Part shown: in pieces, positions 3,127-55,042 of the stretch
How positions within the stretch are numbered: position 1 is the stretch's first letter
How the letters are laid out: each line of letters begins with the position of its first letter
DNA from: Amoebophrya sp. A120
Taxonomy: Eukaryota > Protista > Dinoflagellata
Assembly (NCBI GenBank): GCA_905178155.1
Contig: CAJINV010000002.1
Location: 11,534,591-11,598,590 of the forward strand
Length of the DNA stretch: 64,000 nt
Direction: 5' to 3'
Notes under the pieces: model-generated
Told to the model about the DNA's origin: nothing
Databases searched by the model: none
Seen by the model: the letters and a program-made list of their open reading frames with translations, nothing else
Made by a program: the position numbers and the translations under genes

Positions 3127-5454
3127 TCAAACCGCGGTGAGTTCGTCTTCCAGTACCAGCGGGTGCTCGGGATGTAAATCCAGCGCTGACGCTTTCCAAT
3201 TTTTCGGCTCGCCACAAAATTTGACTAGATCTAACGACCGAGGACTGGTCGGCAAGCTTGTGTACACGAGGCAGTAGTTTGGAATTTTCAGTGCACTTTC
3301 CGTAAAGCCCTGGTTGAAAAGTGTCAGGTACTTGCAGCAGGTCGCTCGCAGGTGCACGTGGGAAAAAGAATTTCTTCCGTCGATCTTTCCCATCAGACTC
3401 GTGGCTTGGTCCATGCCGATGCAATACTGTTGGTTCATGCATCCGCCCTCCCGGCTCGCTAGATCCGTATTTTTGCCGACGCAGCGAGCCAATCCTTCGT
3501 CGATCAAGTCCTGCCACTTGGAGCAGCAATTGGTTCTGGCGTTCACCAGTCCCCCGCAGTTCGGACTGTAGGCCAACGTCGTTTGCGAGAGCCCCACCTC
3601 GTACTCGTCGGTCAGCCCAAACATAGCATGAGACAGTTCGTGCGCGAAGAGCGCACCCTGAAAGTCCCACGCGGCCTGGTAGGTGTGCATTTTCGCGGAC
3701 ATGACCAGCATGTTGCTACCCCACTCGCCCCATCCGTACTGCCGTACTGACGGGCTGCCGGGCGCCACCCGAAGCAGATCCATCGCTTCTTCGGTCATCC
3801 AGACGTGCACCGAGACCGTCATGTGTTGCATGCCTGCGAATGTGTCCTCGCAGTGATGCTGTGCGAACGTAGCCAGCGCCGGCCAGTCACGGCACTCCAC
3901 CCAAAAGTTGTCCACGCCTTGCTGCAGCTGGCTCCAGCCCGGCGCCTGGCGCGGGTCCACGGCCTGATGCGAGCAGTCCGCGCCCTTCACGAACTCCAGA
4001 TCGCTGAAGCGCGCAAATCGGTCCACGCGGAAGACGTTTAGGTGGGGATTGCTGCGCGTGCTGAAGGGCGCAAAGTTTTTGTCCAGTACGGCGACGGTCT
4101 CTTCGACATACTCCGTCCACTGTTCCGCGGATTCCCAACCGTAGGGTAGCAAGACCAGATTTATGGAGTTGTCCAGGTCTCTCCCCGTTTCATCCGTTGG
4201 CGACACTTGCACGCAGGAGCCCCCGCCGTCCACCCGCGATGAGCCGGTGGAGCTTTGCTGGATGCTGCTGCCGCCACCTCGAGGATTGCCTCCACCTCCA
4301 AGGAGGGGCGGGGCCTGGTAGGGTTGCCCGTTGACTACGACCGGGTAATATCAAATGTAAAAATGTCTGGGTCTGGAAGAGTGCAAGATTTGACATGCAT
4401 ATTTCTCATGACACAGACACATGATGCCTGTAATGCATGACCTAGCATCGCGTACTTTTAGAGGGCTTCCTGATGCACTTTCCGCATGAGAAATGCCCTG
4501 TCCGTGTAGCACCAATTGTGCCCCTCTCGCTGGTCATGCAATACAAATTTTTTTAGAGTCCAAAAACAGCATGACAAGTTGCAATCTTCCAGACCCAGAC
4601 ATTTTTACATTTGATAGGTAATTGTCCGCTGTCTCGTACTCGTCCGGATGCGGTGTTTTTTCCGCCTCCGACACCGGGTTCCGGGCCTCCGTTGCGCCGT
4701 CGCTGGCCGCGCCACCGCAACAGGAGTCCCCCGCCGAAGCCTCCGTCGTCGTGGTTGATCGGTTTTCTTGCTGAGAGAACTTCTTGTTTTCGAGTGCGGT
4801 GCCACTGCCACTTCTTTGCAGAACACTTCCCACATCCACCGCGGATGAAGAAGCCACCTCTAGTACAATCCCCGCCTCACTCTCGCCATTGGTTCTGCCC
4901 CTTGGTGAAACTGCATCAGCGTGCCGCGCATTCGCCGGCTTGCTCACCTTCACTATCTTGATGCGCTTCTCTCTACTTGGGGCATTCAAGACCACCTTGG
5001 GTGGAGATCGTGCTAGTGCTCCTACCGCGTCATCCTTTCCCAGTTCGTCCACGTCCTCCGCTCCGGCTCCTGCGCTAGCCAATTTAACATCTGCTTCGTG
5101 ATTCTGCGAAATACCGGTATTATCTTCTGAGAGAATCCCGGCAGACCCCGGCGCATGATTCTCTATGAATCCACTATTTTCGACTTCCTCATCCTCGCCA
5201 GTTCCAGTGTCAAGTGAAGCGGAGTTGACGTCACCACGATGGAGCCTATTTAAAAGTCGGCGATCCCCCGGATGTTGTGGTATCAGCTTATTTTTTTTCT
5301 CTGCTAAAAGCGATTTATTCGCTTTCAGTCTTTCTTCTTCCGGGGGCACAGCATTTTTCACTGCGTGACTTGTGTCTCTGTAAACGTAAGCATCGGTAAA
5401 TCGGTCGAGGAAAAACCACGACCAAGAGTTCGAAGCCAACAACAAGTTCCTCAT
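3127..5454 (-). CDS. Zinc metallopeptidase, M64 (IgA peptidase)-like. Two exons are split by a TIR intron. The start is uncertain.
   Basis: Motif FAHELSHAMFGLTDEY (HExxHxxxxLxDEY). ORFs 4534..5454 and 3127..4233 join in frame (...ETADNY-PVVVNGQPY...SRVDGGGSCVQV) after removing 4349-4616 plus one TSD. Confidence 0.75.
4349..4616. mobile_element. TIR element acting as a non-canonical intron, family A (268 bp)
   Basis: TIR TATCAAATGTAAAAATGTCTGGGTCTGGAAGA at both ends. TSD GGTAA at 4344-4348 and 4617-4621. Excision restores the frame. Confidence 0.93.
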
Positions 5455-6205
5455 GTTAGTGAAAAATCAAGGCAACAGGCGGATAAAGATAGAATTAGAA
5501 GAACCGCTAGCGTTTATGTGCAAGTGCAACGGTGTCGCCTTTTGGCATAAAAAAATTGCAGGTCGAGGTATATATTGGGTTGGCGACGTCAAGCTGAAGT
5601 CTTAACGAAATATGAATATCACCTAGAGCTGGGAAGGGAACTGAGACTGGTGTCACTTTAAAAACGGAGTATGTAACTTCTTGATTCTTGTAGAGACTGA
5701 CAAGCGCGATTGCTGGAAAGATGATACTCAATGAGCCGAGAGATGAAGGCGAAAGGAAAACAAGGCCATCGGAAATACATCAACCTACGGTGATGCTACA
5801 GCTGACGATACGAAGAAACGAAAGCGGCACGGTACGCAGACACGAAGGACGTGGACGACTTTACCATGTAGATGTTTCGTTACGAAAAATGTAGAAAAAA
5901 AGCATGAACGACAACAAGTTCCATGATGTGAATGTACGACATTTTTGGGCACTTCTACTTTTTTGTGTGCAGCTGCAGAACGTCGACATCAACAAAACAT
6001 GTTCAATCAGACAAGACAAGGCAAGACATACTGACGACGATGCACAAGACGACGATCACCTTTTACAGTGACCTGCAAGAACCCTCGCCAGCAGTAGCAG
6101 CACTTTTCTTGAAAAAAAAAATGAGCAATTCATTGTGCTGATAGCCGATGTCTTTCTGGATTCCGTGTCCATCTTCATTCCATCTATCATATCTACAGCA
6201 TCTGA

Positions 6206-7861
6206 TCACAGCACAAAGTCTTCCCAGATTCCCTCCCAGTGGGCTTTTTTGGAAGCAACACAGCGTACATTCATCTCGGTTTCCTTCCCAGCGCAATAAT
6301 CGGGAAGTACTTTCCTTACGCCGTCGACAGAGAACTCCCGGTGGAACATGCAACACATGTTGAGAATCGATGTCTCGCTGAATTCCATTCCTGCTGCGGT
6401 GTTCTCCGCAGGGGTCATGAGGAACTCCGTTTGCCCCTCGGCGTCGTGATCAAGCTCGAAGGTGCTGTGGCCGATTTCGTGCGCGGCCAACGCCGCCTGG
6501 TCCGCGAGACTTCGGAGCTTCCCGGCCGGGTCGCTATTCAGGAGAAACATGCTCCAGGACTTGCTCTCATCTCGCACAATATCTCGGTCGGAGGCGTCGA
6601 ACTCGATTTCTTGCGTTATCCACTGGTCGTTCCCAGCCTTGTCCTTACACTCCATTGGATTCCATTCGTCATGATACTCGGGCGGGCAGAGATATTGTTG
6701 TCGCACCACTTTCGTTGCGTTGTTGAATACGTGCGTGTAGAACAGGCCGATTGCGTAGAGGTTCGTTTGTTCCTTCATCTCCTCCACCGGCACCACAAGC
6801 CCGACGGTGAGGGCCTGCCCGGTCGCGTGGCAGCCGCTATCGCGGGCGAAGGTATAGACCTCGTTCCAGTCGCTGCAGGTGACATGGTAGCTCTGCTGCT
6901 TCTCCTCAATCGTCCAAGCGCCGGACGTCGGTATGTGCTCCGGGTTGTACGAGCAGTTCGTTTTCTGCGCGATCGCCCCCGTGTCCGTTCCGCTTACAAA
7001 CGGAACAGCATCTTTCATTTCGTCCACGCGAAACAAGTTGACGTGGCTAGCTTCCTGCTGAAACTGCGGTAGTTTCACAAGCTCGTCCTTCAACGTTTCG
7101 ATGTACTCTATCCAGGATGTCCCTGCCTTTTCATATGCAGCGGTGTTGTAGGGCACAAAAACCACGTTGAAGGCGTCCTGAAAGACTTCGGGCGGTGAAG
7201 AAGCGGAAGCATGCGCAGAGGCGCCGACCGAAATTCTCGTACAGGTTACTACATCTGTAGAACTTGATGTGCTGCTCTCTTCACTTGTACCCACATCTTG
7301 ACTTGTTTCGTCCTCGCCCTCGGGAGCAGCAGAAGAGGAGGAGCTGCTCGATGTTGTTGCAAGCTCGGCTGAAGATCCGTTAGTGCCTGCAGTTGCGTTC
7401 TTCCCCTCGTCCACCTCCACACTGACGCACCCTTCCTTGGTTTTGCTTGTTCGCTTTCTCTCCAGAAGCGACAGAGGTGCGAGAGTGGGAGGTTCTGGCT
7501 TGATGGACGGGCGTAGAAGGACATCTCTAATATTTTTCGCCTTTTTTCCGTCTTGTCCTCCGCTGCCGGATGCAAGCAGAGACGAACGCCGCGGCCTCGA
7601 AATTACTTTTTCCTTCCCGCGACCCAGCGGACGACCTGAAGAATGCTCTTGAGTCACACTATTCTTGTTGTTGGCCGTTACACGTAAACTGTACTCGGAA
7701 ATAACTCTGTCTGAGGATAAAAGGAAAAACAAAAAACACCTGACAAAGTAGGTGGAGGAGCACGGAAAACTACACTTTCCGGCCTGGCGAAGCAAAGTAT
7801 CTGTAATCATGTTCATGGTACGTACCTCAGTCTGGGTGAAATAAACTTGTGAAAGCAACAA
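6206..7861 (-). CDS. Zinc metallopeptidase, paralog of the adjacent M64-like gene, with a metzincin-like motif
   Basis: Motif AAHEIGHSTFELDH...FLMTP. It shares the blocks NVVFVPY/NLVLLPY, WIEYIE/WTEYVE, HVNLFRVD/HLNVFRVD and CC...PDYC/CC...PNYC with 3127..5454. Confidence 0.7.
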   Translation of the reverse strand: MLLSQVYFTQTEVRTMNMITDTLLRQAGKCSFPCSSTYFVRCFLFFLLSSDRVISEYSLRVTANNKNSVTQEHSSGRPLGRGKEKVISRPRRSSLLASGSGGQDGKKAKNIRDVLLRPSIKPEPPTLAPLSLLERKRTSKTKEGCVSVEVDEGKNATAGTNGSSAELATTSSSSSSSAAPEGEDETSQDVGTSEESSTSSSTDVVTCTRISVGASAHASASSPPEVFQDAFNVVFVPYNTAAYEKAGTSWIEYIETLKDELVKLPQFQQEASHVNLFRVDEMKDAVPFVSGTDTGAIAQKTNCSYNPEHIPTSGAWTIEEKQQSYHVTCSDWNEVYTFARDSGCHATGQALTVGLVVPVEEMKEQTNLYAIGLFYTHVFNNATKVVRQQYLCPPEYHDEWNPMECKDKAGNDQWITQEIEFDASDRDIVRDESKSWSMFLLNSDPAGKLRSLADQAALAAHEIGHSTFELDHDAEGQTEFLMTPAENTAAGMEFSETSILNMCCMFHREFSVDGVRKVLPDYCAGKETEMNVRCVASKKAHWEGIWEDFVL

Positions 7862-9164: not shown

Positions 9165-12100
9165 TCAGTCGTTGGTGCTATTGGCACTCCCACCTGCAAC
9201 AACCTTCATGTTCGCAAGGCGTGGATTTTTCGCAACCACCACTTGCTGCCCGTTGCTCAGAGAGCGATTCTTCGTGGAGTCCCTTGGCTGACTTGGCGGC
9301 CGCGGAATCAGTCCGCGACTGTATCCAGGAAAAAAGCTGTGTAAGTGTAACTTTGTAGGAAGAGCAGCATCACAAATTCGCTTTGCATTACAGGGGAAAC
9401 CTGTCATGCGCAATTAGCATGCCAAAACACGTATGGAAGTAGCCTATGACGCACATCCAGCATCACAAGTGTGACAGTTTTGCATTTTTTGCATCACAGA
9501 CTTACACTCACATAGTTTTTTTCTTGCATAGACTGGGGTACAGTTTCATACTCCGCAGTTCCCCACCTCCGCTTCCGCCACTCGTGGCACCCGGGAACGA
9601 AGACGCCGCCACGGCAGAAGGTGGCGCGACAACTTTGGGATTGGGAGCTGCATTTTGAAGTAGACCATTACCCGCTAGATGGTGTGGTTGAAAGGTCCCT
9701 GGTGCGCCTCTACTCCCGAATAAGTCACTATAGCCCATTGATGTTCCATCGGGTGGTCCCCTTGCTGGTAGCGTGCTGGATTTCACCTGCTGCGAAATCC
9801 GAGGTAAAACGACGACTTCCCGGGAGCGACCGCGGGGTGGCGACGGCTGCTCTTCTTCGCGACCCATCCACAGACCGAAGCTGTTTCCCGCCGGGCGCAC
9901 AACCGGCTCCAGAGAACGCGGGAGATCACGCCGTAGCGGCAAAGGTGGAGGCATAGGTTCGACTACTCCAATGATGGCGGACGACTGGTCATCAGGATCC
10001 ACCGTGAAGATGGCTTGATCTCGATCATCCTTACGAGGACGCGGCTCATCTAGCTGCACCTGGCTCTCGCTACTAGGATCATGCGCAGCAACAAGTACCT
10101 GACCCTCAGCCTGCAGCTTCGACGCTGAGTTGGAATGTGAGTGCGCACTTCGTGTCAAAGTTCTCGGCGCGCTGAAAGACGAAACAACGAGCCCCGGCGG
10201 GGGAGCGTGTTGTCTTCTATCCTGTAGCGGTGCAGCTGCTCTCACTGTCGCGGTCGCTTCGTCGTTGGAAGACGAACTGCTCAAGCTAATGAGTTTGGAA
10301 GCCGGCTGCAGAATGTTCAAATGGCCGCGCTGCTTGTTCGCGATTGCATTCACTGTGGGGGAGGGCCGACCGGTAAAATTGATGCGCTGTTGCTGCTGCC
10401 GGTGACCCTCGGTGCGGTCGTGGTAATTGAGTTCCTTCTTCGCCGTGCGGTCCGGATGCACATTGTACTGGTCCCGGGAACTACTGGCAGAAGGAGCTGT
10501 GTTGGACACTAATGGAGCTTCCCTCGGAGGGGTCGTCGCTTCCGGTGGAGCAGCAGAAAATAAGACGTCCGGAGATGAGGGCGCTTCAGCGATGCTGCTC
10601 TCGGAAATGAAAGAAGATGCCACTGTAATTTGCTCGCGCTTCTCAATCTCTGGCTTCTTCACCTCCAAGTCTGCTTTTTTCATTGACGCCGCGAGTACTT
10701 CGTCGTCCCCTGCGACCACAGCTTGTCCCTTGAAGTCCTCATGTCCTTGTGTCGCCTCCTGTATTTCAGCACTGTTAATAGTTGGTGCGAGTTTTTTTTC
10801 TTGACGAGATCCGCCAGCGTCTGGTTGCACGTGGTCACGCTCGCGGTCATCTTCAGACGCCTTCTCTGTTACTCCTACTTCTTTAGTGACAGAACCCTCC
10901 GGATCTACATCTGCTGCTGGTCCTGATTCGTTTGAGTTCCTTACTTCCGTATCTGGAACGTGCTGCGTTGCGTCTACGTCCATCGGCGTCGGCTCGATAT
11001 TCATCGGCTGCGTCAGTTCGCTTAGTTTTTCCGGTTCTTCATCAGCAATGTTGCGCGGCAGCTTTCCATACTCATTTTCGGCAGCAGCCTGGGAAACAGC
11101 AGTACTATCTTGCGCCTTTGCGGGTTTCGCCTCTTCTGGCGCTGAAGCGTTGCTACCACCCGGGCGGTCCTGTTGCATTTCTCCCTTTTCATCTACGAGA
11201 GGTCCTAACGCTTTTTCCAACGTTACGGCTTCAGCTTGAAAGACATGTTCGTGTTCATCGTCTTTCTCTTCGTTAGCACCAAACTGACGTCTTGTCTTTT
11301 CACCGTCCGCTTTCGTATCCGCTGCATCTTCGACGACGTCACTGTCAGCCTTATTTGCCCTAAAATTTCTTCCCGTGACAAGAGTCTGGAAGGCAGACGT
11401 GACTTCTCTCAGAACCTCACTGGTCTCCGCACCCAGCAACTCGGTCCTCGAATTCTTGGGTCCGCCAGAATAAAGATCTTCCGCGTTTAGAAACGCACAG
11501 TATTCAATGTGCCCGACTTCTCCATTTTCTCCCGGAAGATTCAGAACCTGCGTCCAACAAGACCTTTTCTTCTCAGTGGAACCTAATTGTGCGCCAGCAG
11601 ACTCCTGCTCCGCAACCTTCATCACGGACGCCGTCACGGACTTGCAGGAAACATCTGCATGCAATGACCAGGCAGAAGTAGGCATCGTCGCGCGTGACAC
11701 CGGGTCACTCTCCCGCTTCCGGTTCCGACTTTCGCTTTCCGGGCTTGACATTTCCGGAGTATCAAAAGCTTGCCTGAAACCTGCAACCAATGATAGAGCG
11801 ATCGGCGGCGCTGTCTTCGGCGGAACAGGGGTGACGCGACGCCATACAAGCAGCTGGACATCCGGGCAGTCGTGCGTCTTCTTCAGCCCACCCTGGCATT
11901 TATCATCACAACTCGCAGGACTGCTTTTGTCCCTCTCCGCAGTAGCAACCGCCTTCTTTACGCCTTCACGGACGCTCTCGCGGTCCCGCATCGCAGTGAA
12001 TAAGAACTGCAACAGTTTCGACGGTCCGAGTACTTGCTTCCCCGTCTGGGCGTCCTTTACGCCCGTGTTGAGCACGACGAGGTGCTCGTAGAAATCGCTC

Positions 12101-24911: not shown

Positions 24912-27900
24912 CTACGAAATCTCGGCCTGTTCCTCTTCTTCCTCCTCCTCCTCGTTCAGCAGTGCTACCTCTAAATCATCATCGGCCTTGGCCCCGCCTG
25001 TACTTCCAAGCTCGACCTGCGTGCTACCCTCGGGACGTGTGAGCACGAACATGAGCATTGCGACTTGAACGCCGACAACGATGAGCAGAGAGAAGATGAC
25101 GCCGAACCAACCGCCGCGGCGTGCCTCGAACGTGTCGTCCTCCTCCTCCACCTCATCCATTTGTCGTGGCTCCCGCCAGCCGTACGGAAGACCCGTAGCG
25201 AAATCCACTTCGTAAACCTGATTTTCAAAGATCAAAAGATTGTTTTGCATAACCAACGAAGATGAGCAAATTGCTTCAGGCAAATATCTCTTGCACTTGT
25301 CCCTTACTGAGGCGCGAGAAGACAACAAGTCAGTAAGCAAAATTCAGGGCCGGTTATGTATAAAAGCTGCACAGACCATGACAACTGTGTGCACTCAAGC
25401 CAATACCTCGTTTGTATCGTGCATGACCCAGGCATCTCCGGTGGGTGTTTTGGCGTAGAATCGCGCTCCGACGACGAGATTTTCGTTGTAGTGCGTTTTC
25501 GCGGCCTCCAGGTACTGGTAAACCCGGTCGTCTTTTTGGCTCTTGTACTCTGCGCTGTTCATCATCTTGGTCAATTGTTTGATCTTTTTTTGCAAGAAAC
25601 TCCGGCGCGCCTTGACGTACTTCTTTTGCATGAACGAAGCCGCGTCCTCCTCATCGTGTTCCTCTCCGTCCGCGCCCTTTTGAGGTTGCGCCGCTCTCTC
25701 TTGCTCCTTCAAAGCTGCCTCCTCTGCGAGGGCCTTCTGCTGCTTCGCTTCCTCCTCCAGCAGCTGTGCTTGCTCCTCGGGGCTGCCGTGGGTGGTAAGG
25801 TCCTCGGAGGGCAAGACTAGCGACGCCATGACCATTGTCAGCATGGAGGCGACGGCCTGCAGGGCCGGCGCGAACTGGTCAAGCACCGACTCCACCGAGC
25901 CGTGAAATAAATCGGCCAGGTGCTCCATGTCGTGGCGAAGCCGGTCGTGCGACTTCACATCGTCAGCCAGCCCCGTCACGTCGAAGGTGGCAAAGAGGTC
26001 TTCCTGTTCGTGCAGGTCGAAGCTCTGCTCCATCATCACGCATTCCTCGACGGAGTACTTGCTCTGGGGGCACTCCGCCTCCAGCGCGTAGTGCAGGTGA
26101 GGTTGCAAGCCCATCTTGGAAGCCAGGTGAAAGTAGAACTGCTCCTTCCGCACGGCACCAACAAGCCCGTGCCCCTGCAGTTCTTGGTCCTGGAAATTAT
26201 CCTGTTTCAAAAGTACTAGAACTCCCCGTCGGCTCGCTGCACGGTTTTCTTAACTTGCGTGCTTTCATGCCGAAAATCTGCGTGCAAGAGATTGATGATG
26301 GACTTCGTTCATTATGCCGCAGCACTGCAGATCAATTATGACATACATCCCTGCTAACTCAGGGGGCAGAGGTCCAGGTCCTGTGGGCAGAACAAGAACC
26401 CCAGTACATTTATTCTACTTACTCATCAAATTAAAGTTAAAAGAGAACTGATGAAAGCCTAATAATTTCCGACACGACATGTGTGTTTTCTTCACTTTTC
26501 TTTCCGACAATGCGCCTGCAGCAAGATACGCGGGAGTTCTCGTAACGCTTCATAGAAATCCGCCATCGACGCAAATTTTTCCACCTGCACCGCCTGCTCG
26601 CATTCCAGCGTGGTCTCAAACCCGTTCTGTTCGGGACTCTGACATTCTTCCAAATACAGCGCCCGCACCATCATGGAGCCGAGGTGAGCTCCGGGCAGAG
26701 ACCAATCCCGGATGTCCCCTGACCTGGACGACGCGGTCTCGTTCCAATCTTCCACGGGAACCTGCTCGTCCATGCGGCCGCGCGCCCCATCCGTGCGCTC
26801 AACGTCGTCCTCGTGGGTGTACAGCACGCGCAAGGCCTCGATCTCGTTGTCGATCTGGCGCTGCGCGATCCAGTCCTTCAGCAGGCCGTGCTGCACCGGT
26901 TCCGAGCGGTAGAACTCCTCCCACTCGATGGTGGCGTATCTTGTCTGGAATTCGTTACGGGAGACGATGTCAAACTTCGTGTGCTCTACAACCGTCCACT
27001 GAAACAAGATCGCGCCGCCTATCTCCAGAAACTGCGAAACCTCCTGCATCAATTTCAGGACGGCTTCCTGCTCTTGCGGGTCCGGATTCGAGGGGAACAC
27101 GTTGATGTGTTGCAGTGGCAGCCGCCGCGTCACCGCGACGGACTGGAAGGTCGCCAGCACCAGCTCGAAGAAGCGCTGCTCCATCGACCCCGGGTTCAGG
27201 TTGGCGTATCCCTTCTTCAGGACTCGGTCGACACTTCGCACAAAATCTTCGGTGATCGGTAGCGCGGCCACAGGCGGTCGCTGGAACGGAACCGCTGGAG
27301 CGCCGGATTCGCACTGTGTTGCGTTTTTTGGAAAAAATGATATAGGTGAATCATAACGATTAGGACAAGGGACGAGGACGACGACGACAATGACAAAATC
27401 ATAAGCCAGCGTTGCGGATAGCTTCGGGAGCAAGTCGCTGCTTTTCTTTGACGAATGAATCAATCATGTTCACTCTACCGTACGTCTTGGCATTGAAAGA
27501 AATTGCAAATAAGAATAACTGCAAACTGTATTCATTCTACTTCATAGTCCTATTACAGCACTTCTTCCACCACGTACCTTTTCCTCCCCCGGTTCGCACT
27601 TCATTTGCTTGAGCTCCCCCCGGAACACCTCCGCGGTCTGCATGTTGAGGTAGCATTCCTCGATTTTGGCGATGACCTGGCGGTTGCGCTTCAGGCTGCG
27701 CTCCACCTTCCACCACTTGTTGCCGGTGACGTCTTGGAACCACGTGAACACGCCCGTCTTGCCCACGATCAGCTCCGTCAACCCCGCGCACTCGCGGAAG
27801 GTGAACCCGTTCTTCTCCATCCACTCCCCCTCGCGCGGGAAGTACTCCACGATGTTCTGCTCGGCGTCGTTGTAGATCCCGTTGGGGTACTCCTTGGCAA

Positions 27901-30900
27901 AGTAGCCCGTCGCGTCCACGTCGTCGTCGGGGATCATGTGCGCCGTCGTGGGCATCCCGTACTCGATCATCACGAAGAACTCGTCCTTGTCGTCGATCCG
28001 CTTGTGCAGCACCGGGGCGCCGTTCACGAACGTGCGCCCGAACAGAGGGAGCCGCGCGCGGTCCAGCCGGCTCCAGTTGGGGTTGCGCTCGAACATCTGG
28101 TAGGGCATGATGCGCATCGTGCTCCAGTCCTGCGGCTTCAGGTCGATCGGGCCCCAGAACCGCACCTTTTCCGCGCGACGGCGGACGAAGGGAATCCCGT
28201 TCACCAGGAGCTCCATGTCACTGGTCTCGCGGTACACCCGGTCCAAATCGTTGTCGTTCTTCACACAGTACGTACGCGCCATGCGGAACCCAGACAAGGT
28301 GTGGCTGCTCATCAAGCGGTAGATCGAATCCTTCATGAAGAACTCGGGGTGCGTGCCCGGACGGACGCCGCTGTTCCGGGGAAACGCGTCCGCTGCCGAA
28401 ACACGCTTCAGCTGCTCCATCATTCCGACGTTGATCCGCCGCCACAAAGTGCTGTTACACCGGTCGAACAGCTCGTCCTCGTGTCGCTCCATGTTCCGCG
28501 TCTCGTTGATATTCAACAGCGTCTTTTTTTGTATTTTTAGATGGAATTGTCGGAGATGACAAAGTTCCAATTTTCGACCGGATTGGTACATGCTGTACTT
28601 CGTGCGTGGGAAAAACTACGTTGGCGCGATTGACTCGATTACTTGGATAGAGTTGCTACTACTGCTAGCTACGCGGCGCATTGCAAAACTAAGTTGCCTG
28701 CAACAGGATGCATGTGGATGTCGAAAAAACCAGCAAAGATAAGACGTAGTAAAAAAAAGGTAAAGACACGGGTAGTTGATAACGTCTTCAAACACGTTTC
28801 ACAAAGACGTACCACGTCCTGCTCGCCGAGCGGCGTGCCGAAGGGGTGTCCCACGGAATGGTACTCGGAGACCCAGCCCTCGAGGCACTGCGTCCCGTCC
28901 TCGCTGAGCTCGGTGCAGTAGCCCCAGACCAGTGCACACTGACGCGCGTAGAAATGGGTACTGTCCTCCGGATTGGTCAGCGCGGCCTCGTGCGGCATGC
29001 ACTCCTCCGTGACCTCGGGTCGGTGGTGGTGCAGCTCCATCTGGACCATGCGGAACTGGTCCACCATGACCGGCTCCCCCAGCCGGTAGTCCAAACTGGA
29101 GAACGGCTCGGTGGGCAAAATGAGGGAATTCGGCAACTCGGCGTGACCCATGGTGAACCGGCCCTTCTGCCCCGCCAAGGACTTCTCAACAACGGTTTCG
29201 TTCACCTCCTTACCCTCGCAGCACGAGTTGCCGTCCTGCTTCTTCGCCACGACGCGGGTCACGTCCATCGCCGGGAACGTGCAAGTCTTCAGCATCTCCT
29301 CCGGAAAGCGCTGGGCCTCCACCCAGGAGTTCCCGAGCTCGTCCTCGAAACCCCGCAGCGGGTAAATCGTTCGCTTCTGTCAGGTATGCATTGCGAAAAT
29401 GTCGGAAATAAGAAGCATGAAAGTACAGAATGCAAACACCACAGACACTCGCCGGGTTTTGTTCCTCCTTGCGAGGAAGCCGAAAATGCACCGAACTCGT
29501 TGAACAAATAGTGAAAAATCTATGTAGAGTGCGGAGCTGTTTTGTGGCGCGGATCTGCGGTCTCTTTGTTGCAGGTTGTATTATCTACGTAATATCACGA
29601 CACTTTCGCACCGAGGATACTTGGCGCTCTGGACCGGGGTCGGGACCACCGCAAACGTGCCTCCCTCGCCGCCGTACGCCACGGCGCGGCACTGCAAGAG
29701 CCGCCAGTTTGTGGGCAGCTCCGGAAAGTCCTCGAGCACATACTGCTTGTGCGTGGCACCTGCGTTCAGGTGCATGACGAACATGCCCGCACCAACGGCT
29801 TCGATGACCCACACGTGGCGTCCGGTTTTCCAGATCCACCGGATCTCGTCCACCAAATCTCGCTCGTAGACGACGTAAGGCTTGCGGTCATAGAAGCCCA
29901 GTGCATCCTTCGGGGTCATTGTGGCCGCGTTGGATTTTTTGTTGTCTTCGAAAATGGTGTAGAAGTCGTGGCGCACCGGCACAAAGATGAGCGGGTCCAA
30001 CTTTCCCTTCTGCTCGTTGAAGTGGTAGGCTTCGTGGCTGGGCGAGTAGCGGGAAGCGCCCTGGTTCAGACACTTGCCATCCACCTCGATGAAGTCCACC
30101 TCGAGCGAGTGGCGCTTCTTGATCACGATGGTGTGGTCGCCCGAACAGGTGTGCGTGTGCGTTCGCGCGCACTGGTCGTCCAGGTCCGCGGAGATGGTTT
30201 CCTTCTGCAGCACCTCGAAGCCCTCCTGCCCGCAGTTCCCCGCGTCCGTAGCCAGCAGGACGGACCGCGTCTTGAAGCAGAACTCTCCCGCGTCGTGCGG
30301 GTCCGCGCACTTGCCCAGCTCCAGTGTGCAGTACGACTCCCCAAGTAAAGTCGGTTCGTCCGGGCCGTAGAACGCGCCGCAACGCTCCCACGACGCCTCG
30401 TCGCGCTCCACCACTTCTCCGGTCGAAACAGGCAGCGCCTCGACCACGTTGCCCTGCTCGTCCACGTGTTGCGGCTCCTCTCCACAGGTCTTCAGCATCT
30501 GTTGAAGTGAGACTTTCATTATTTTCCCAGGAGATCATTTCATTGTTTATACTTCACAATCCGCAGCGATAAAAATATTGTTCGCGGAAGGGGAAGGCAA
30601 AAAAACCAGCGACGCTGCATAAAAAAGCGCATCATGGGAGGAATTAGTAAACACTATCATTTCAAAAATGTTGTATCATTTATATCGAGTGATATCAAAA
30701 ATGAAAACCTCAGGCGGCATGCGTCCGGTGGCTTCGATCCACGTGTTTTTCATGTGATCTACGAACGCTCTGATCGTAAACTGGGACTTTGTGGCATTCG
30801 CGGGAGGAGGCTGGACCGGCACGGTTCCCAGCTGGAAGACGCCATGCCCGCTCTCCTGAGGATAGCTCGCACGGGTCGTGCACCGCAAAAACTGCATGCC

Positions 30901-33900
30901 ACTCGGCACCACCTTGGGATCACGGTAGTTCGAGGCGGTAAAGGCGCGTCGGTCCACCCCGCTTGTGTACAGCATGACGTAATACTCGTTGTGCTCGGTG
31001 TCGTGCAAAACGTAGACCTCCCGGTTAGCCTTCCAATTGTAGGACACCGGAGAGTACAGAGAGCGGGTGTACTTCACGTAGGGGAGCATTTCTGAACAAT
31101 CGTAGTAGTGTCAACATTCTGAATCAATTGAAAGTAAGAAAGTCAATTCGGTAGCGGGCAACACGCGGTCATCAAAATGAACTACTTATTTATACTCTCG
31201 AATCCCTTGTCTTCGATCACATGGCCGGCGGTTATGCCTGTGGTGTTCGCAAATGTCGTCTGAAGAGTGACACCGGCGGTGTCGTACATGAGGATGTGCT
31301 CGCCGAACTGAACCGTGTCCTGGAATCCGGCCGGCGCTTCGCCCGGACTTTTGAAGCACTCCCCACCGTGGTACAGATAGTCGAACTGAAAACGCGCTAC
31401 CGTTTTCAACACGATTTGAATCTGCGTCGTGGCGCAATCCACTGTATTCATTTTTCGATAAGTACTTTTTTAAATTCTTTACGCAGGATCTGCTCGGTGG
31501 TAGAACATGATTGGGACCACGACCCTGACCCGTCGTGAAGCAAGATGCTCCTTCGAAGATGCCAATCGCGCAGCCGGGTGCGAACCAACATTGGAATTTT
31601 TCGAACCACAATCAAAAAGATCCATAAAACGACCACGTGCAGTAGTAGATCCAAAGAAGCAAAAATTTCTATACGCTCCCGGGCCTTGCACTGGTCGCGG
31701 TACAAAGTGCGCACTTGGCTCTTGCTGAGTTCGTCGAAATGGCCGTAATCACAGGGAAGCTCGTTGGTTTTGAACCAGTGCGTGCGCGTGGTGTCGCACT
31801 CGTCCAAGTTCTCGGAATCGCAGGCGCCCACCTCGAGTTCGCACTGCAGCCAGTCCGCGAGCGAGAGCAGCGGGTCGGTATCAAAAGGAAAAACCCCCCC
31901 TCCCCATATCAAAACGGAAATCTGTGATGCAGATTTGGGGTCACAAATCAGCTCTGTATTGCAGTAGAGGACTGCAGGCCCACATCAAGCCTGAGTGGGA
32001 GAGGTTTTGGCCTAGGAGCTCAGCACGACAAAAGTCGATGCTGTAGGTCCAACAGCATCACAAACCGCCGGTATAATGCGGGGGGCCTTCTGGGTTTGCC
32101 TTCTTGCAAGACAGACGGGATTTGTGGCCACAAATCAGCATCACAAATTTCCGAAAATATACCTTTTCGGTATGGGGAAGGGGGATTTTTCCTTTTGATA
32201 GTCGGCGGCCATCCCGCACTTCCAGCCCGCTATGGAAGCGTCAGGTATAAAATCGTCAAAGTTGAAATAATTTGTAATGCAGAAAATGCGACACAAAAAG
32301 TGACTCTATTGCAGAGGACCCACGGGAGGCAGATTATAGTCCTGGTAAGGGTCAACAGTTGGACTGCTAACTAGCATGACAGAAGGCAGCTCCTTTGCCC
32401 TAAACCGCATGACAGACTCGCTTCCAGGACCGGGGAGATTTGTCATGCACCGACTACAAACTGTAGGTCTAACTGGTATCCGTTTTGTGCATGACAAACT
32501 ATTTCAACTTTGACGATTTCAAACCTGACACATCCATACCCGCGGGCCGGGGCGTGTTGGGGTCTTCGAGCTCCATCTCCCTTTCTTTGTCCTGGTACGC
32601 CTTCAGCTCCGTCTCGGTGATGAACTCCTTGGGCGCGAAGTGGTGCGTGTGAACCTTTGGGTGCAGCTCCGACGCGATCAGCGCCTCCTCCACCACGTTC
32701 TGCCCGTCCTCGCCAAACTGGTTGGGGTCGTGCTCCGCCGCCTCCGTGTAGAGCTCCGGAAAACACTCGCGCTTCATGTTTTCGGTCATGGTCCGGTAAT
32801 CGAGCTCCCAGAAAATGTTGTGCTTCTGGAAGACCCGATTCGTGTTCACCAGAGCCACGTTCTTGTTGGACGCGTCCACGCCGGCGACTTCGCAAGTCCG
32901 CGCTACCGTGCCGTCGGCTTCTGATTCAGAAGAAAGGATGGTGTCGGGATGACCAGCGTACATGCCCAAAAGGTACACCTTCTTCCCGCCACGGGCAACC
33001 GCGCTCTGCTCGTCCGACTTGTAGGTACGGACGTGGATGGAGCTCCCCTCGCGCAGCGTCGCCACGACCAAATCGTCACGCAAAGTTTCGTCGTCGGGCG
33101 CCAAAAAGGCCGTCTCGCCCTCGTCTTGCACGGCGCGCGCCGAAAACGTCACATCCGGTTCCGTGAACCCGTTGGGATCGAACCGCAGAGGCTTGTTCCC
33201 CGAAATCTGAAACTTCCGCTCGTGAATCTTCTGTGGCTTGTACAGAAAGGTGATGCCGCCAATGTTCACCATGCTCAGCGCCGCGAGCTGGGCCGACTGG
33301 AGTGGAAAAAAAAAGTGTACAAGTTCTTTTTACTTTAATGTAACAACAACTACGCAGTACGCTAGTACACCGAGTATGCTATTAACATTCAGTACTGCAA
33401 TTACTAGAAGCCTAGTAGTAGTAGTAGTAGTTAGCGTTCCACAGCGCTCATAACAGAAACAGCATGATATGATCGTTTTGGCATTTGCAACGCAGAAAGA
33501 GAAGCATGAACAAACCGTCATCTCCGTGTCGCCCGTTGGCGAAATCGCAGAGGCAGCGCCAGAGTTGCCACGGGCCGCCATTGACGCTTTCGCGGCGGCA
33601 AAGTACTGGTCCGCGCGCGAGGAGCACTGATAGGATCCAAATTCATTGTAGACAGCATCGACCGTGAGTGGAACGGGCGGCATCTTGACGATGATGGGCC
33701 AGGTGTGGTGTGCCGCAATCGTTTTGTCCACGTTCCGTGTGGTCACGAAGTTGCGTAGAGCCACCTCAACCTGCAGGCGCGTGATGGCATCAAACTTCTC
33801 GGTCGGACACTCCTCGACGGCCAGGAACCTGGTCACGATCCCCTCATAGCACAAGTCATCGGCTCCTTCCACCTTGTTGCTGCAGTGCCCCACAATCAGC

Positions 33901-35359: not shown

Positions 35360-38300
35360 TCATGATTTTGACGCTTCCTTAGAGGCCGGCTTGGGCTTCT
35401 TCCACCGCACGACCGCTTTCCGCCAGGAAACCAGGCACTGAGGCCCAAACAGCCGGAAAACACACTTGTCCAACACGAACGAGAGAAACGCCCCGAATCG
35501 CTGGGCGGTTCTCGTCGAGGAAGTGGGCCAGATTCCGATGATGTCCGGAAACCGACGGGTGTCTTGATCGCAACGACTGACTCGCTCCAGTTGGGCTGAA
35601 GACAAACCAGCGAATCTTCTCGGGTCGCCAACATCTTTGCCTTCTTCGCCGCATTTCAGATTTTCCCGCACATGCGTTGGATTCGTCGAACTCGGGATGA
35701 CCACCACCCCCCGTTGTAGGTTCCACCGCAGTGCTACTTGCTGGACTGTGCTGTCCAGCTGCTATCAAATGTAAAAATGTCTGGGTCTGGAAACTTGTGA
35801 TGCTGTGTGGCGTATCATGAGGAGGCCACAATTGCTGGCTCAGCATGACAAGTTTCTGAGCTTCTAGGTGTTGCCAATTCTGCATCACAAACTACGTTGC
35901 TGCATGACACAAAAGTGGGGCTCTTTGGTAATGTTCGTTCGTTCGTGTGGATCGGCTCTGCCGACCGGGTAACCCATCGCCTCGCATACAAATGACCGAC
36001 ATAGGCGAACCCCGTTGCGGGACATACATACGGCCGTACGGAAGGGCCCTAGGCGCTACATACATAGTTCACCCTAGCGCCTACCACTTCGGTCGGGACT
36101 GAGTCAGCCTGGTCCTGGGGGTTCACAGCGCACTAGCCCTCTGCTAGCATAAACAGATTGGGTTCTAAAAACTGATCTAACTTCTTATAACAGTGAGGCC
36201 ATCATACTGGTGCGCTAAAAAGGGTTCGGGGCGCTCCGTACGGAAGGGCGCCTTTCGACGCGGCGCACACTCTCCTGTAGAGGTTTACGCGGAACACGGA
36301 TGGGCCGCGCACGCAACTCAGTCGAGGAGGACACGCGCTCCCTCAATGACAGAGGTGGCAGTCACTCCCGGCGGCTGGCCTGTCTGGAGACGGCAAACCC
36401 CGCCTCCCATCTTCCCGGTTCGTCAATGACTCGGGCAAGCCATGTTGCTTAGACTCCCCGCACATGCAAATATGGGACGGCTGGGGGGGTTCAAAAAGAG
36501 CACCAGCTGCGGATGATCTAAGTGTAAAACAAAAAGCCATATTCTTCAGCTGTGCTGTTTATTTATCACTAGGCTGATGGCCTCCTGTTCTTTGTCTGCC
36601 TGCCGCGCCCCTAAGGCTAAGACCTTGCTCAGAAACAAGTCCGCCGACCAGAAATAAGTCCTCCCTGCAGAAACAAGTCCAGCACCAAAAGTCCAACCAA
36701 AAACGAGTCCGCCCTGCAGAAACAAGTCTACCGACCAAGAAAAAGGTGCCCAACCAGCAAGAAGCCCAGCTCGTCCAGCAAGTCGGCCCAGAAACAAGTC
36801 CGCCGACAAGTCCACCCACCGACCAGGAAAAAGGTGTCCAACCAGCAAGAAGCCCAGCTCGTCCACCAAGTCGGCCCAGAAACAAGTCCACCGACAAGTC
36901 CACCGACCAGGAAAAAGGTCTCCAACCAGCAAGAAGCCCAGCTCGTCCAGCAAGTCGGCCCAGAAACAAGTCCACCGACAACACACCATCAACTCCGAGG
37001 CCGAAGCGCAACTCCGAGACCTCCACGCGTCTGTTAACTCCGAGCCCGACCCGAAAGCGCAGCGCCGCCACTCGTCCGCCCGGAACTGCGAACAAAGAAA
37101 CCCGACCAGAAAGCCCAGCACCGCGGCCGGAAAGTCCGCGCGGTTTGTGTGTGTGTGTGTGTGTTTTTCTTTCTAGCTTAGAAGGAATCTCCCGCACTTT
37201 AGGCGGCTGCCAACAGAGGCCTAGGGAAAACGACGAAAACTAACAACAAGATTCGAGACGAAACAAGACGATTATAATGACGACGAAACATAAGTGAATA
37301 GCTAAAAGCACCTCATCTACACATCCAGACCAACCTATACAACTACAAATCCACCTCATCTACACACCCAAACGCAAGCAAAAATATTTTTTTTTTTTAT
37401 TTCCCCACTGCACACAGTTGGTAATGTGCATGGCAGATTTAAGAGTCATGCCAGACAAGCATGACAAACTTGCATTCTTCCAGACCCAGACATTTTTACA
37501 TTTGATAGCTGCTTTGCTAGGTCCATGAGAATCTCGTCTTTGGCGAGCGATTTCCGCCCGAAGTTCAGCGGGCCCCAGGCGACCGGGCGGATTTCTCTCT
37601 CCTGCAGGTAGTTTACCAACTCTTGTTGCTGAAAATGGGGATGGAGCTCAATCTGGTTCGCGTATGGCCAAATGGTAATTGCCTTTCTGTGTCCTCTCGG
37701 GGGGGCTGCGATGGTGTCGGAAGAAGAGCAGAGGAGCTCCGGGCGACTACTCTCAGAAACCTTGCTCGAAGATGTTGCACTGGTGGACGCAACAGAATCG
37801 GTGTCATCTTCTGCGGAGCCGGAGCTCTTCTTTGGTGCTTTGCTCGATCCTGCTGGTGCTGCATCTGCATGCGTTGCCACCCCAGCCACGCCGGCGTTCT
37901 GGTCAGCAGTTGTACCAGTGTACCACTGCAGCAGTTCTGTTGCCAATTGCGCCCTGTCAAAATTTGACACGCCCAAGTTCCGGACCAGGCCTTCTTGCAC
38001 CAGCGTTTCCATGGCATTCCAGGTATCCAAAATAGACACCGTCTGGTCCACCACCAGCGGTTTGCCCTTAACAAACACTCGCGGCCAGTGAATCAGCAGC
38101 AGGTCAAGATACGAGCTTTGCAGGTCGTTTAAGCTGTCCAAAACCGCACTCCTCACGTCGCTCGGGTGCAACTCCTCGCACCAGAGCTTGGAGGTTATCC
38201 ACAGGTCGCTGCGTGTGACACCGCCGGTGTTGCCTTCCAAAAACCTTGTCACCGCCCGCCCGACTTCGTCCTCGTTTGCGTACAAGCGCGCGCAATCCAG

Positions 38301-45800: not shown

Positions 45801-45922
45801 ATCATCTTGAATTAATCTCTTCATCAAGCAAAAAAAGAAACTGAAGAGTAAGAAGCAAGAATTGGAATTTCAAAAGCAGCAGCACAATTATAATACGTTA
45901 ATAAGGTAGCGTTTCCAACACT

Positions 45923-49008: not shown

Positions 49009-52000
49009 TCAGCTTCGCAGCAAGGCTTGCGCTTTCTTCCCCTCCTCTGTTGCTTCCGCACTTCGGTTTAGCTGATGGAGTGCCCACCCGCGCCTGGTCC
49101 GACACGCCGCCTCGAGTCGCGGATGCGAACTCTGCGGCTTTCGGGACTCGATTGCCCGCAGGGTCTCGTCGCACATTTTCAACAAGTCTTGAACCCGCTT
49201 CAATTTTTGCAAACAGAGACAACAGTTCAGCCGGACGCGGAGCTCTTCCTCGAAAAGATCCTCACCACTTGAAGATGCGGCTCCAGAAGCAGAAGCTTGG
49301 TGTGGTCCTGCAGCCAACTGAAAATTGCCCTTGGTACGTGCGTAGTTGAAAATCTGCAGCGCGGACTCGAACTCTCCCTTTTCGAGGTACTTCGTGGCCG
49401 TGCCGACCAACTTTGCGACTTCCGCCTGCTGCAGGGACCCGTCCTCCGGGTCATCTTCGTCCTCGGAATCGGAGTCTTCTACCACTGCGGCAGATTTTGC
49501 CCCTCCTGCAGTTGCACGCGATCTCGATTTCGCCTCAACATCCTCAGCGGAACTCGAGTTCTGACCACCACCGCCTAAAATCTTCTTTTGGATGATCCTT
49601 TCCACGTTCTTTGCCTCAGTTGCACTGAGCTGCCCGGACGCGGAAGTACTAGTACCGGCTGCTGTGGTGCCTTCGTCTTCCTGTTCCCCCTTGCCACCCA
49701 ACTTTTTCAGATTTCCCGCAATTTTCGCTCGAAGCTGCAGCGCATCCGGATTTTTCGGTTCCGCCGAGAGTACCATCTCCAGAGCCTTCGACGCATCTTC
49801 GAACTGCTCCTGCAGTTCGTACGCGCGAGCCTGGCGGAGACGGGTCTTCACAAAAAGCCTGCGCCGAGTCTTCTCGCACGGGTGGTCGCGGCGAAAACAG
49901 CCAGGCTGCGTGGCAATCAGACTGCGCTCGAAAAACTCGGTGCTCTGAAGATAGATTTTCATGGAAAAATGCTTTCTTGTTTTTGTCACAGAGTTCTCTT
50001 TGCGCAGTCGCTCCTATCCATCTGGATCGCATTTCAATTTTTCCCTCTCGGCGACTGCATGTCACTCTGAGGAAAAGTAGAAGTCATTGACTTTGACGGT
50101 GCAGTGAAGACGAAAAACTATGACTTGACCCATAGCCCAGCACATAAGTACCGTTCTGTCTTCCTCTTTCATTTTCTCCTGGTCGAGTTCCGCCCTTTTT
50201 TTTTGCTCGTCCAGATACTCCGACAGTTTCATCCGGTACTCGCCCGCCTGATGCAAGGCTTCGCTGCACGGCCCCTCCTTCGCCAGGTTCTCCTGCCGCG
50301 CCGTCTCGATGGCCGCGTCGATTACGTCAATGTTCCGCGTGTAGAGCGCCTCCTGAAACTTCGTGATCTTCGCCCGGATCGCCGTAATCTGGTCCCGCGT
50401 CAATTTTTTGCGCACCGCAATCCAGGCCTCGTCTTTCTTCTCGGACGCGTCCCGCACCCACTCAAACTCCTCGGGGATATCGGGCAACTTCCCGTCATTC
50501 GGCGACCCGTGGTGCTTCATCAGCCAGTCTTTCTCGTCCGTTTTGCTGGCGTTCGGGTTGCGAAAGGTGTGGTCCTCCAGCGTCGGCGGATCCAGTCGCT
50601 GCGGCTTTTCGGGAAGCTTCGGTGCATTCCGCGCCACCGGCCACCTGGCGAGTAAATCGCAGGTCGTGTCGGCGTCTTGTAAACAACCTTCAATGTCCAT
50701 CGCTTGCAGCTTCACAAAACTCCGGTTCGCGCAAACGACGGCGTTCTCCTCCTTTTCCAGCAAGAACGCATCGTCATACTCTTTCAGAATCACCGCCTGG
50801 GTCTCCTTGTCGAGCACGTTGTTCGTCGTTCGAAGCTTCTTGTCAATCTCCCGCTTCTTCTCGCACGCTTTGGCAGCCAGTCGGACGCGTTGCAGATCTT
50901 CCTGCAAAATGCCTCGTTCCTCTTTCGTCAGTGCGCACTCCTCACACTCGTTCCGGTCCAGTGCAGTGAGGAACGAATCCTCGCACCGGGCGTACTCTCC
51001 CAGCCAGAGAAAGGCGACGCCGCGCCTTACGAGAACACGTGCGCGCAACTTCTCGTCTTCCGGGTCCTTCGGCGGGGCGCAGTGGCCGTCGGGCACTTTG
51101 GTCTTCATGTTCAGGATCTTTATCGCGTGATTGCAATCCTCGATGCAGTTCGACAGCTTCCCGAGGTACAGGGCGCACACTGCCCGATTTGCGAAGGCGC
51201 GCGCGTTGGAGTACTCGGTAAGTGCGGTCGTGTATGCTTGCATATCGTACGAAAAAACTGTTTCACTGTGAACTTGTGATGCATAGAATGGAGCACACAA
51301 CTAGTTGTCTTGCTACACATGCAAGACACTGGGTTTTTCAACGTGTTTTCCCTTAGGAAGCACGCATGGCAAGTTTTCTTGGTCATGTGTAACGAACTTG
51401 TAATGCAAAACTTGCAAAATCCTTACAGTGAAACACTTTTTTCGTACGATACTGCATAGCGCTCGGGTAATCCCCCGCGGCCATGCATTTGTCCGCCTTG
51501 TCCTTCAGCCACACGGGGTCGGACTCGTCGTAGTCCGTTTCGCCAGCTAGTTTGTGCTGCTTGGCTGTGGGATGTTTGTATGTTTTCCTTTTGATTGTCC
51601 AAGGTGAAGTTGAACTTCAACTCATACTTGCATTCATTTCATCAGATGTTTTCGTGACTGATACTGATTTTTCGTTGCACCCAGAAAAATATGTCGCAAA
51701 ATCTATCACTTTCATACGCGCGGCCACGCCAGTCAGATCCCTCGGGTGTGGTGGGGCGCGGCCGGGCCTATCACGCGCCGGAACGCCGGGCTTTGCGTGT
51801 CGGGTCATCGGCAGGATCATCTTGTGCGTACCGGCTTGGCGAACCTCTGGCAGGTGCGGTTTTGGCGGCAAGATCTCCATCTGATACTCCTCCTCGCTGT
51901 CGGGGTCTTTTTCATCACGGGCCCCTGCAGCTTCTATCTTCTGATTGTCCTCCGGGTCGGTGTTTTTATCCGTGATGTTCTCCGCCTTTTTCGCCTTGAC

Positions 52001-53024: not shown

Positions 53025-53630
53025 CTTGGCGAACGGAAGCGTTTAAGAGATTCAAATACTTACTTCTTTTCTTAGCGATCAGTCGTGCATTATAAACAGA
53101 AGAACTAAGAAAAAACGCAGACCGTAAGCAGCACGCACGGCGAATGGGATCCGTGCTTTGGTCGACCTTCACTCAGCTGAGGAAAGATTTTTTGTTGGAC
53201 TTGCGCTGCTTCTTCGTCCTGTCTCACTCTCAGACTCAACGCACAGCGCTCTGTCCTCCCACAGCTGAGAACATAATTAAAGCGCAAGGAAATAGGTAAG
53301 ATTTTGCACCATCGTATCTAGTTCTACTTTATTGTCGACCGCGCAACAATAAACAGGTCTTGTTTGCCCTTTGTACAGGCATTCGCTCAGACTCAACAAT
53401 GTACAAATCCGTTCCTGAAATTGCAAGGGCCACCAACACCACGACAAAAATCGCCGGTGTCTTTTGCTTGCTGTTTCGTGACTTAACAGCAACGGGTACC
53501 CGTATACGAACGTTGTGGCGCAACGTTACTGACACTAAGTTCATTTTTGGAGGTCGAAGTCCATGAATCACCTTCGAGGACTCATAATTTTTTGAGTGGT
53601 TCAGAGCACTTGACGACTCTGAGAACTACC

Positions 53631-55042
53631 TCACGCGGCCTTTTTCCGCGTCATGTGATCAAAAATCACCACCTGCACGTACTCCGCGGTTTTGATTTCG
53701 TGCCGCTTCGAATTGTCTCCGGGGTCTTTCACGCGCGGGTCGACGCAGATTACCTCAAATGCCATTGAAAGCTACGTCCCAAAGATAGAAATAAGAAAGT
53801 CAAAAGGAAGCATGATTATCAAGCTCAGATCCGAGTAGTTTTCATCTCCTTGAATGATGAAAAAGACGAACGATTTACTACCTTTCTATCCCTTTTGTTC
53901 TTAAACAGCAGCCCTTGCTCGTAGTCTGGTATGATGTGATATCCACAGTAAATTTCCCGTACACGTACAAATGCAGTCTCTGCATGACAAAACTTGCCTT
54001 CAGTCCTAGTCTAGCATGACAAGTTGGACACTGCAAGTTAGCGAAATTTGTCATGCATTTTGTACATGTACGGGAAATTTACAGTGCATATGTGAAAGTT
54101 CGCGGACTCGTTTGACGCAGTGTGCTGTGTGTCCCAGTTGTAGAAACTCAAGTCCGTTTGTCGGGGTAGCAGCCTCTTTTTTCCTGTAGTGCGTTGTTTT
54201 AGATCCAGTTCCATCTATTTCTTTTCTACAACGACCAAATTAACCGCTACCAGCACGAATACGCCTACAACCAAACCATGATAACCAACATCAGTTTGCT
54301 AAACAATGAACTAACTTGTCGCACAGAAAGAACCAAAACCACCATTGAATACTTTCAAAGTAAGGCTCGAAATTCTCGCTCTTCAGTCGCTGCCCGTAAT
54401 CTATGTACCCTGACACCTCCTGCCCCTTCGTGTTTTTATCTCTTATGAAGATAATCACGCTGAGTTTGCCTTGTCGTACCAACTCTTCCCGGGCGGCCTA
54501 TTGGGATCAGATTTTGAAACGTCCCATTCAAAGTAGTCGATGGATCTGTGCAGCAGCGACGTGGGTACAACCAGTCATTCATCTTTTATTTTTTCTCGAA
54601 TGGAGCAACAATCAAAAAATATACCAGATGCCTCAGAAATGGGTAATCCGTGAGGTCTTTGTTCGCTGAGGCCAACACTTTCGGTGCATTCTGTAACTTG
54701 CTTTTTCTTGCCTCCTCCGCAGCCTCCTTGCGTGCTGCAAACTCTTCCCGCGACAAAACCTCGCCTTTGCGACACCCTATTTCCACCTGTTGGTAGATAA
54801 TCCATTGCACTTCAAAAACTGTCTGGCGCCCCCGCTTTAAGCATTGTTCACATCATGAAAAACAAAAATGCAAACATATGCACAAGCAAGCGTTCAACGA
54901 GATGAAAGCTCAAGTCAGTCAGCTGTACCAGCTGCCTTGCTAGCTCGTCATCCTCAAGGTATTTCCTGTCGTGGGCAGTGATTTGGGCGTCCAAGTAGTC
55001 TTCGTACGTAATGTACTGCTCGACACTGGCGTCGTCGTCCAT
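53631..55042 (-). CDS. CFAP299: Cilia- and flagella-associated protein 299 (C4orf22), six exons
   Basis: Joined exons read [13 protein letters not shown]...[15 protein letters not shown]...[35 protein letters not shown]...[15 protein letters not shown]...[17 protein letters not shown]...PGDNSKR...[14 protein letters not shown]. Confidence 0.92.
53940..54090. mobile_element. TIR element acting as a non-canonical intron (151 bp)
   Basis: TIR TAT(C/G)CAC(A/T)GTAAATTTCCCGTACA(C/T)GTACAAA. TSD TGTGA at 53935-53939 and 54091-54095. Excision gives conserved [17 protein letters not shown]. Confidence 0.95.

Follow-up and report, generated by a model that had tools for sequence, protein, structure and literature searches.

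How does a cell remove tens of thousands of introns that carry no splice dinucleotides? The question is raised here by a window of Amoebophrya sp. A120 DNA, analysed over its full 64,000 nt, in which coding exons are interrupted by non-autonomous TAT...ATA DNA transposons flanked by target site duplications (TSDs) of 5 bp. These elements are almost certainly the published A120 introner elements, a feature already known since 2021. Their removal very probably takes place at the RNA level, and we give about an even chance (roughly 0.5) to the reading that they are removed from the pre-mRNA outside the spliceosome, by a cut-and-ligate system which reads the paired ends of each element. All claims on removal rest on the literature, on one deposited gene model or on inference. 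The analysis narrows the question: the length and orientation of an element are irrelevant, canonical splice sites are found at chance level, and one motif is present across elements with unrelated repeat cores.

TAT...ATA elements in coding exons of the window

An earlier note on this DNA, made from the sequence alone, had described nine such elements as interrupting intact genes. All nine show the TAT start, the ATA end and terminal inverted repeats (TIRs) at the coordinates below, and the tally of their TSDs was likewise confirmed (5/5 in seven, 4/5 at 51243 and 2/5 at 29385). One further element, 26198-26554, came out of a systematic scan; its TSD is perfect and its arms are decayed. Among all ten, the TAT start is present in 10/10 and the TSD is 5/5 in eight, 4/5 in one and 2/5 in one. 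The elements and their internal features are:

4349..4616, 268 bp, TSD 5/5, in a minus-strand gene whose match to Peptidase_M64 is weak
9322..9530, 209 bp, TSD 5/5, close to the 3' end of a minus-strand open reading frame (ORF) of 1311 codons
17516..17666, 151 bp, TSD 5/5, inside the second GAF domain, hairpin z -8.7
26198..26554, 357 bp, TSD 5/5, TIR decayed, fold z -1.7
29385..29619, 235 bp, TSD 2/5 and decayed, fold z -3.6
31879..32200, 322 bp, TSD 5/5
32201..32230, 30 nt, minus strand, spacer between two elements: a 25-nt micro-exon and one TSD copy
32231..32538, 308 bp, TSD 5/5, 56-nt arms
35763..37507, 1745 bp, composite element, TSD 5/5, in the aldo-keto reductase (AKR) gene
35935..37417, 1483 bp, insert nested within the 35763 element, 10-bp direct repeat at its flanks
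51243..51451, 209 bp, TSD 4/5 (the difference is synonymous), in TPR repeat 1 of the CS+TPR gene
53940..54090, 151 bp, TSD 5/5, in the DUF4464 gene (presumably CFAP299)

Seven of the nine elements are the top 7 inverted repeats listed for the window, with arms of 27-56 nt. Under a strict definition (arms of at least 16/20 and TSD of at least 4/5), eight sites were found in the window and none in 30/30 dinucleotide shuffles. A run of A occupies positions 11-13 in seven of the ten elements, is moved one base in two and is missing in 32231, and predicted folds pair the ends in each of the three elements folded (17516, 29385 and 26198). On the coding strand none of the ten gives GT-AG or GC-AG in any of six registers, and to this extent the earlier claim that sliding the junction never yields these pairs is right; it does not extend to the non-coding strand, where 4349 gives GT-AG. 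Furthermore, 53940 gives AT-AC in one register. Minus-strand stops are present in all three frames of every element, so that retention of any of them would end the protein.

Near-full-length relatives were found in the loci fetched from a second assembly (see below) for eight of the ten elements, and none for 26198 and 29385. Elements 4349 and 35763 share a 30-nt TIR, a 91% relative of 4349 is present in locus L070, and 9322 has 17 near-full-length matches. The interval 13958-14289, in apparently non-coding DNA, also shows TAT...ATA ends and a perfect 5-bp repeat, but its arms match at 6/20 and it has neither the internal motif described below nor relatives; it is probably a chance occurrence and was rejected.

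The composite element consists of a 252-bp core, 97% identical without gaps to copies in L121 and L053, and the nested insert, which contains an 84-bp tandem array and a short simple-repeat end besides its 10-bp direct repeat. No Pfam, Rfam or locus match was found for the insert, which may be a non-autonomous retroelement. An Rfam search of the whole 1745-bp element gave no match either; nothing recognisable is encoded in it, and it is not the autonomous parent.

Once the element and one TSD copy are removed, the minus-strand frame opens at all nine sites. At 29385 this is conditional: most of the upstream TSD copy has to be retained, because a stop sits in the downstream one, and the cut has to fall after TSD base 3 or later. 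The placement inside coding sequence proposed for each element is weakest for 9322, which lies 51 codons ahead of the stop of an ORF without homologue. At 4349 the joined ORF has 671 aa without a stop and the junction falls within a low-complexity linker, while one ORF of 413 codons spans both the 31879 and 32231 junctions. The proposed restoration of conserved motifs was supported for three genes: when the AKR model is aligned with 40 homologues, no gap peculiar to it falls at the 35763 junction, the second GAF domain aligns to the first without gaps across the 17516 junction (37% identity, E 2e-20), and the two exons flanking 53940 align with PF14713 one after the other (positions 144-172 and 175-195), in the gene that the earlier note had called CFAP299. 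Profile support at the TPR junction (51243) was weak (E 0.008). In addition, AT5 protein P0122 aligns gaplessly across the 26198 junction, and the 29385 junction is spanned by a neighbouring paralogous ORF with 29% identity. Homologue support across the junction was searched for 4349, 9322, 31879 and 32231 and none was found, and searches with the exons before 32231 and 29385 gave nothing within the length limits of the searches.

The DUF4464, TPR and GAF genes can accommodate GT-AG introns, in line with the statement that ordinary introns occur in several of the same genes; three other intervals gave no join with the search keys used. About 61% of the non-element window is coding according to a rough exon list, and on this basis the finding of 10/10 elements in exons has a P of about 0.008. 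Any TSD-making insertion into an ORF would by itself allow the frame to be restored in this way; what the restored frames demonstrate is that the elements went into coding DNA and that no decay followed, but not that the elements are removed.

The link to known introners is closer than the earlier note, which placed them in Amoebophrya, had drawn it, as the host is A120 itself and the element class is the same. Farhat et al. 2021 (PMC7789003) describe A120 introner families that open with TAT, followed by seven variable bases and at least three A, with direct repeats of 3-5 nt at the exon-intron borders; in that study 65% of 66,565 RNA-seq-supported A120 introns are non-canonical, and U1 small nuclear RNA was not detected. 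The window elements share with them the organism, TAT and the A run, the direct repeats, the hairpin ends and the non-canonical borders; both are mixed with GT-AG introns, and there is no difference in kind. Gozashti et al. 2025 (PMC12130899) describe A120 families with TIRs, such as fam12 (252/260 bp), fam17 (149 bp) and fam23 (209 bp), and among 40 of 58 A120 rows of that source fam38 is annotated 'Ginger; 5-bp TSD, TA/TA Termini'; these families were likened to the window elements, which are of the same length classes, by length and description. The AKR query is 100% identical over 100% of 300 aa to P0001 of Amoebophrya sp. A120 (one gene tested), CAD7936726.1 is a deposited protein record of the same organism, and the deposited P0001 model skips exactly the 35763 element plus one TSD. 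The window thus combines the A120 host, TAT inverted repeats, direct repeats, non-canonical borders and repeated families, and because the same element class from the same organism is already in print, the feature is a known one and not a new case.

Borders and internal motif in a larger sample

A second public assembly shows the same element families at high density and up to 97% identity. A 22-nt terminal repeat matches at least 133 stretches (L001-L133), 132 of those listed lying in JACKZZ01 contigs, and these loci match the window in elements only, not in exons. An arm match of at least 15/20 is reached by 355 candidates in these loci, and 254 of them also have a TSD of 4/5 or better; as the loci were picked by the repeat of one family, that family is over-represented (134 of 248 short elements). 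Among 305 short candidates a perfect 5-bp repeat is present in 211 and a 6-bp repeat in none, and the TSD is strictly 5 bp in these copies. Of the 248 short elements, 89 were confidently framed on both sides and 86 of these were concordant; the other 159 were left out of the frame test for low confidence. The insertion phase of the 89 is uneven (42, 24, 23), perhaps from a target preference acting on codon composition. GT-AG in any register was found in 13 of 205 oriented copies against 14.0 expected, which differs from the spliceosomal introners of the Micromonas type that supply a GT/GC donor and an AG acceptor, and asymmetric elements face either way (35 versus 30) with no orientation bias. 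The own arms of an element pair at 87% over positions 16-29, whereas pairing across families is 25%. A multiple alignment of short elements across families was uninformative.

An internal motif, TGTVATGC, was picked by eye from the window elements, where it has 28 copies in 3,955 bp against none in the other 60,045 bp. It is common to eight of the ten; the decayed 26198 and 29385 have no exact copy. The independent test is the second assembly, in which it is present in 248 of 254 elements and shows 1,326 matches in 107 kb of element-like DNA versus 57 in 274 kb outside (overlapping loci counted twice), mostly 30-50 nt from an element end. Furthermore, of 13 groups with repeat cores (positions 16-29) unrelated to one another, 12 have it. 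This suggests a common factor, and TGTVATGC is likely a binding site for such a factor common to all families. That factor may belong to the transposition machinery or to the host, and the data do not separate the two. The motif and arms are retained equally in coding-like (157/161) and low-score (51/53) contexts, and for this reason TGTVATGC is not established as a splicing signal. The TIR also has two matches in IMG/VR; the DNA around them is coding-like and rich in A+T, neither a partner end nor the motif is present, and both were set aside as chance matches. L094 is likewise without the motif.

TSD mismatches provide a view of which copy reaches the message. They are synonymous in 15 of the 24 usable cases (of 37), where random phase would give 33% (P 0.003) and a fixed junction 40-48% (P 0.02-0.10), and in 14 of 19 mismatches at TSD bases 1-4. 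This excess is a hint that both TSD copies can reach the mRNA and that junctions are variable.

As far as the available texts show, the strict 5-bp TSD, the chance-level GT-AG count, TGTVATGC and the synonymous TSD bias add to what is described for the published introners. The available text of PMC7789003 makes no mention of the first, second and last of these; the motif is unmentioned in the available portions of the Amoebophrya introner literature, and figures S19-S25 of PMC7789003 may show it. Together with the elements of imperfect TSD, 29385 and 51243, which are natural test cases for the cut position, the motif and the GT-AG count make the mechanism easier to attack without settling it.

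Removal of the elements and competing explanations

We propose that an integrase-like DDE transposase of the IS3EU/GingerRoot/Ginger neighbourhood would insert the elements in either orientation, that the arms would pair in the transcript whatever lies between them, and that a cut-and-ligate machinery would read the paired ends and make two staggered cuts inside the two TSD copies, by which one 5-nt copy is lost and the original message restored. Paired ends fit as the signal, which has to be symmetric and to work despite a 1.5-kb insert and a micro-exon of 25 nt; the window contains both the 1483-bp nested insert and the micro-exon between 31879 and 32231. The interpretation offered in the earlier note, a second, structure-guided route that makes exonic transposon insertions harmless, is supported in its transposon origin, 5-bp TSD and non-canonical borders. 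The structure-guided part agrees with the hairpins and with the lack of splice dinucleotide or orientation preference; the arms add no support for it.

Several observations weigh against removal outside the spliceosome through paired ends. The transcribed strand shows no preference for G-U pairs (156 versus 147 A-C), and no signal of selection on the arms after insertion was found, the arms being no better kept than the TSDs (2.6% mismatch per TSD base versus about 1-2% at invariant arm positions). Arm pairing may for that reason reflect only what the transposase needs. In the family with the 4349/35763 repeat, positions 4, 5, 7, 10 and 15 mismatch the partner end in 16-38% of copies and sit among nearly invariant neighbours, a pattern that suggests the footprint of what the transposase reads. 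The decayed 26198 and 29385 persist despite weak arms, and the comparable animal system, SOS splicing, is imprecise (PMC12779559). Neither the 1745-bp element (5 ORFs) nor four other long copies (18 ORFs) yielded a recognisable transposase family. Finally, register 4 gives every element an N-TAT donor, and where the fifth TSD base differs (n=7) the upstream copy has G in five and the downstream copy in none.

The N-TAT donor and the upstream G fit a relaxed major spliceosome. Its donor would be formed by TAT and the TSD base just before it (N-UAU, similar to positions +2 to +4 of ordinary donors), and a sequence-free acceptor four bases past ATA would be placed by the hairpin. We regard this as a credible explanation, somewhat short of probable. 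Register 4 is always NT, four of the ten window pairs in this register appear in Table S4 of PMC7789003, where the nine predominant A120 pairs all have T second, and the cut at 29385 must come late in the TSD. In addition, nearly all spliceosomal proteins are present in A120 (PMC7789003), and the introns of Fritillaria give a precedent (PMC11282704). These points are countered by the lack of enrichment of G at the fifth base (58/205) or of AG at bases 3-4 (19/205), and by the absence of orientation bias. The synonymous excess at bases 1-4 ill suits a fixed junction, and read mapping would be unable to fix the published junctions inside a perfect repeat. Selection for GT at a fixed N-TAT donor was rejected, as no enrichment was found, and the N-TAT donor itself is retained among the candidates.

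Two explanations dispense with splicing. Precise DNA excision in expressing cells or nuclei, with transcripts coming from empty alleles, would suit the orientation independence and the lack of G-U bias, and dropping the element with one TSD amounts to a clean reversion of the insertion; nevertheless, the nested insertion and the decayed arms show long residence, and we know of no programmed DNA elimination in this lineage. The available text of PMC7789003 reports no transposase in A120. DNA-level excision is the less likely branch, and we consider it very unlikely. Alternatively, the elements would not be removed at all, the junction reads being reverse-transcriptase jumps across the hairpin and direct repeat and the genes either dead or translated by ribosomes that hop between the duplicated codons. 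Template switching has a classic substrate in a hairpin flanked by direct repeats, and every 5-bp duplication includes one whole codon; however, the flanking frames are intact and conserved. Hopping predicts matched codons, yet the residue is altered by 5 of 12 mismatches within the duplicated codon, and at 29385 a stop lies there; on this mismatch pattern hopping was rejected. We hold non-removal as a whole to be scarcely credible.

Returning to removal outside the spliceosome, a stronger version, a precise and lossless splicing system that would read the paired TAT/ATA ends together with TGTVATGC and make two cuts at variable positions summing to 5 nt, is doubtful on present evidence. If true, it would be a protist counterpart of SOS splicing for thousands of fixed insertions, lossless through the TSD, and TGTVATGC would be a handle for purifying the host factor. 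In SOS splicing, which involves AKAP17A, CAAP1 and RTCB, pairing of inverted terminal repeats triggers removal from mRNA apparently without the spliceosome (PMC12779559), and it provides the precedent for the route proposed here. The likeness lies in DNA transposons with pairing terminal repeats, seen here in the three predicted folds; SOS splicing differs in being known from animals, where exonic insertions are rare, whereas those of A120 are abundant and fixed.

Other systems share part of these features. IS3EU/GingerRoot elements also have TA...TA termini and TIRs, and because their TSD is usually 6 bp (PMC10045372), a length absent from the short candidates, the window elements were not filed under this group. 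Euglenid nonconventional introns carry an N3-CDG ... CHG-N5-6 signature (PMC12501133), and C-D-G at positions 4-6 is present in none of the ten window elements when inspected by eye with the intron starting at TAT; the non-canonical introns of Fritillaria prefer AG-AC/AG-AT borders and are reported as spliceosomal (PMC11282704). Both resemble the window in transposon-like introns with paired ends and non-canonical borders beside GT-AG introns, and they supply precedents for both sides of the spliceosome question.

Neighbouring genes and minor observations

The genes recognised by Pfam (histone, GAF, Dpy-30, AKR, CS+TPR, CAP, L21, I42 inhibitor and dynamin) are all on the minus strand, a one-strand layout like that of the unidirectional clusters described in Amoebophrya. 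The minus-strand interval 3130-7882 contains two paralogues in tandem, which share 28% identity along part of their length, and 4349 sits in one of them. P0003, the A25 orthologue of the AKR, shows a 23-residue insertion at most 2 residues from the A120 element site, possibly a coincidence or an annotation effect. Between 24900 and 34700, also on the minus strand, there is a series of ORFs that give no Pfam match, some of them paralogues of one another; they may make up a tandem family or a single long gene of many exons. For one exon there, the matches are an AT5 protein and two unnamed repeat proteins, both longer than 6,000 aa.

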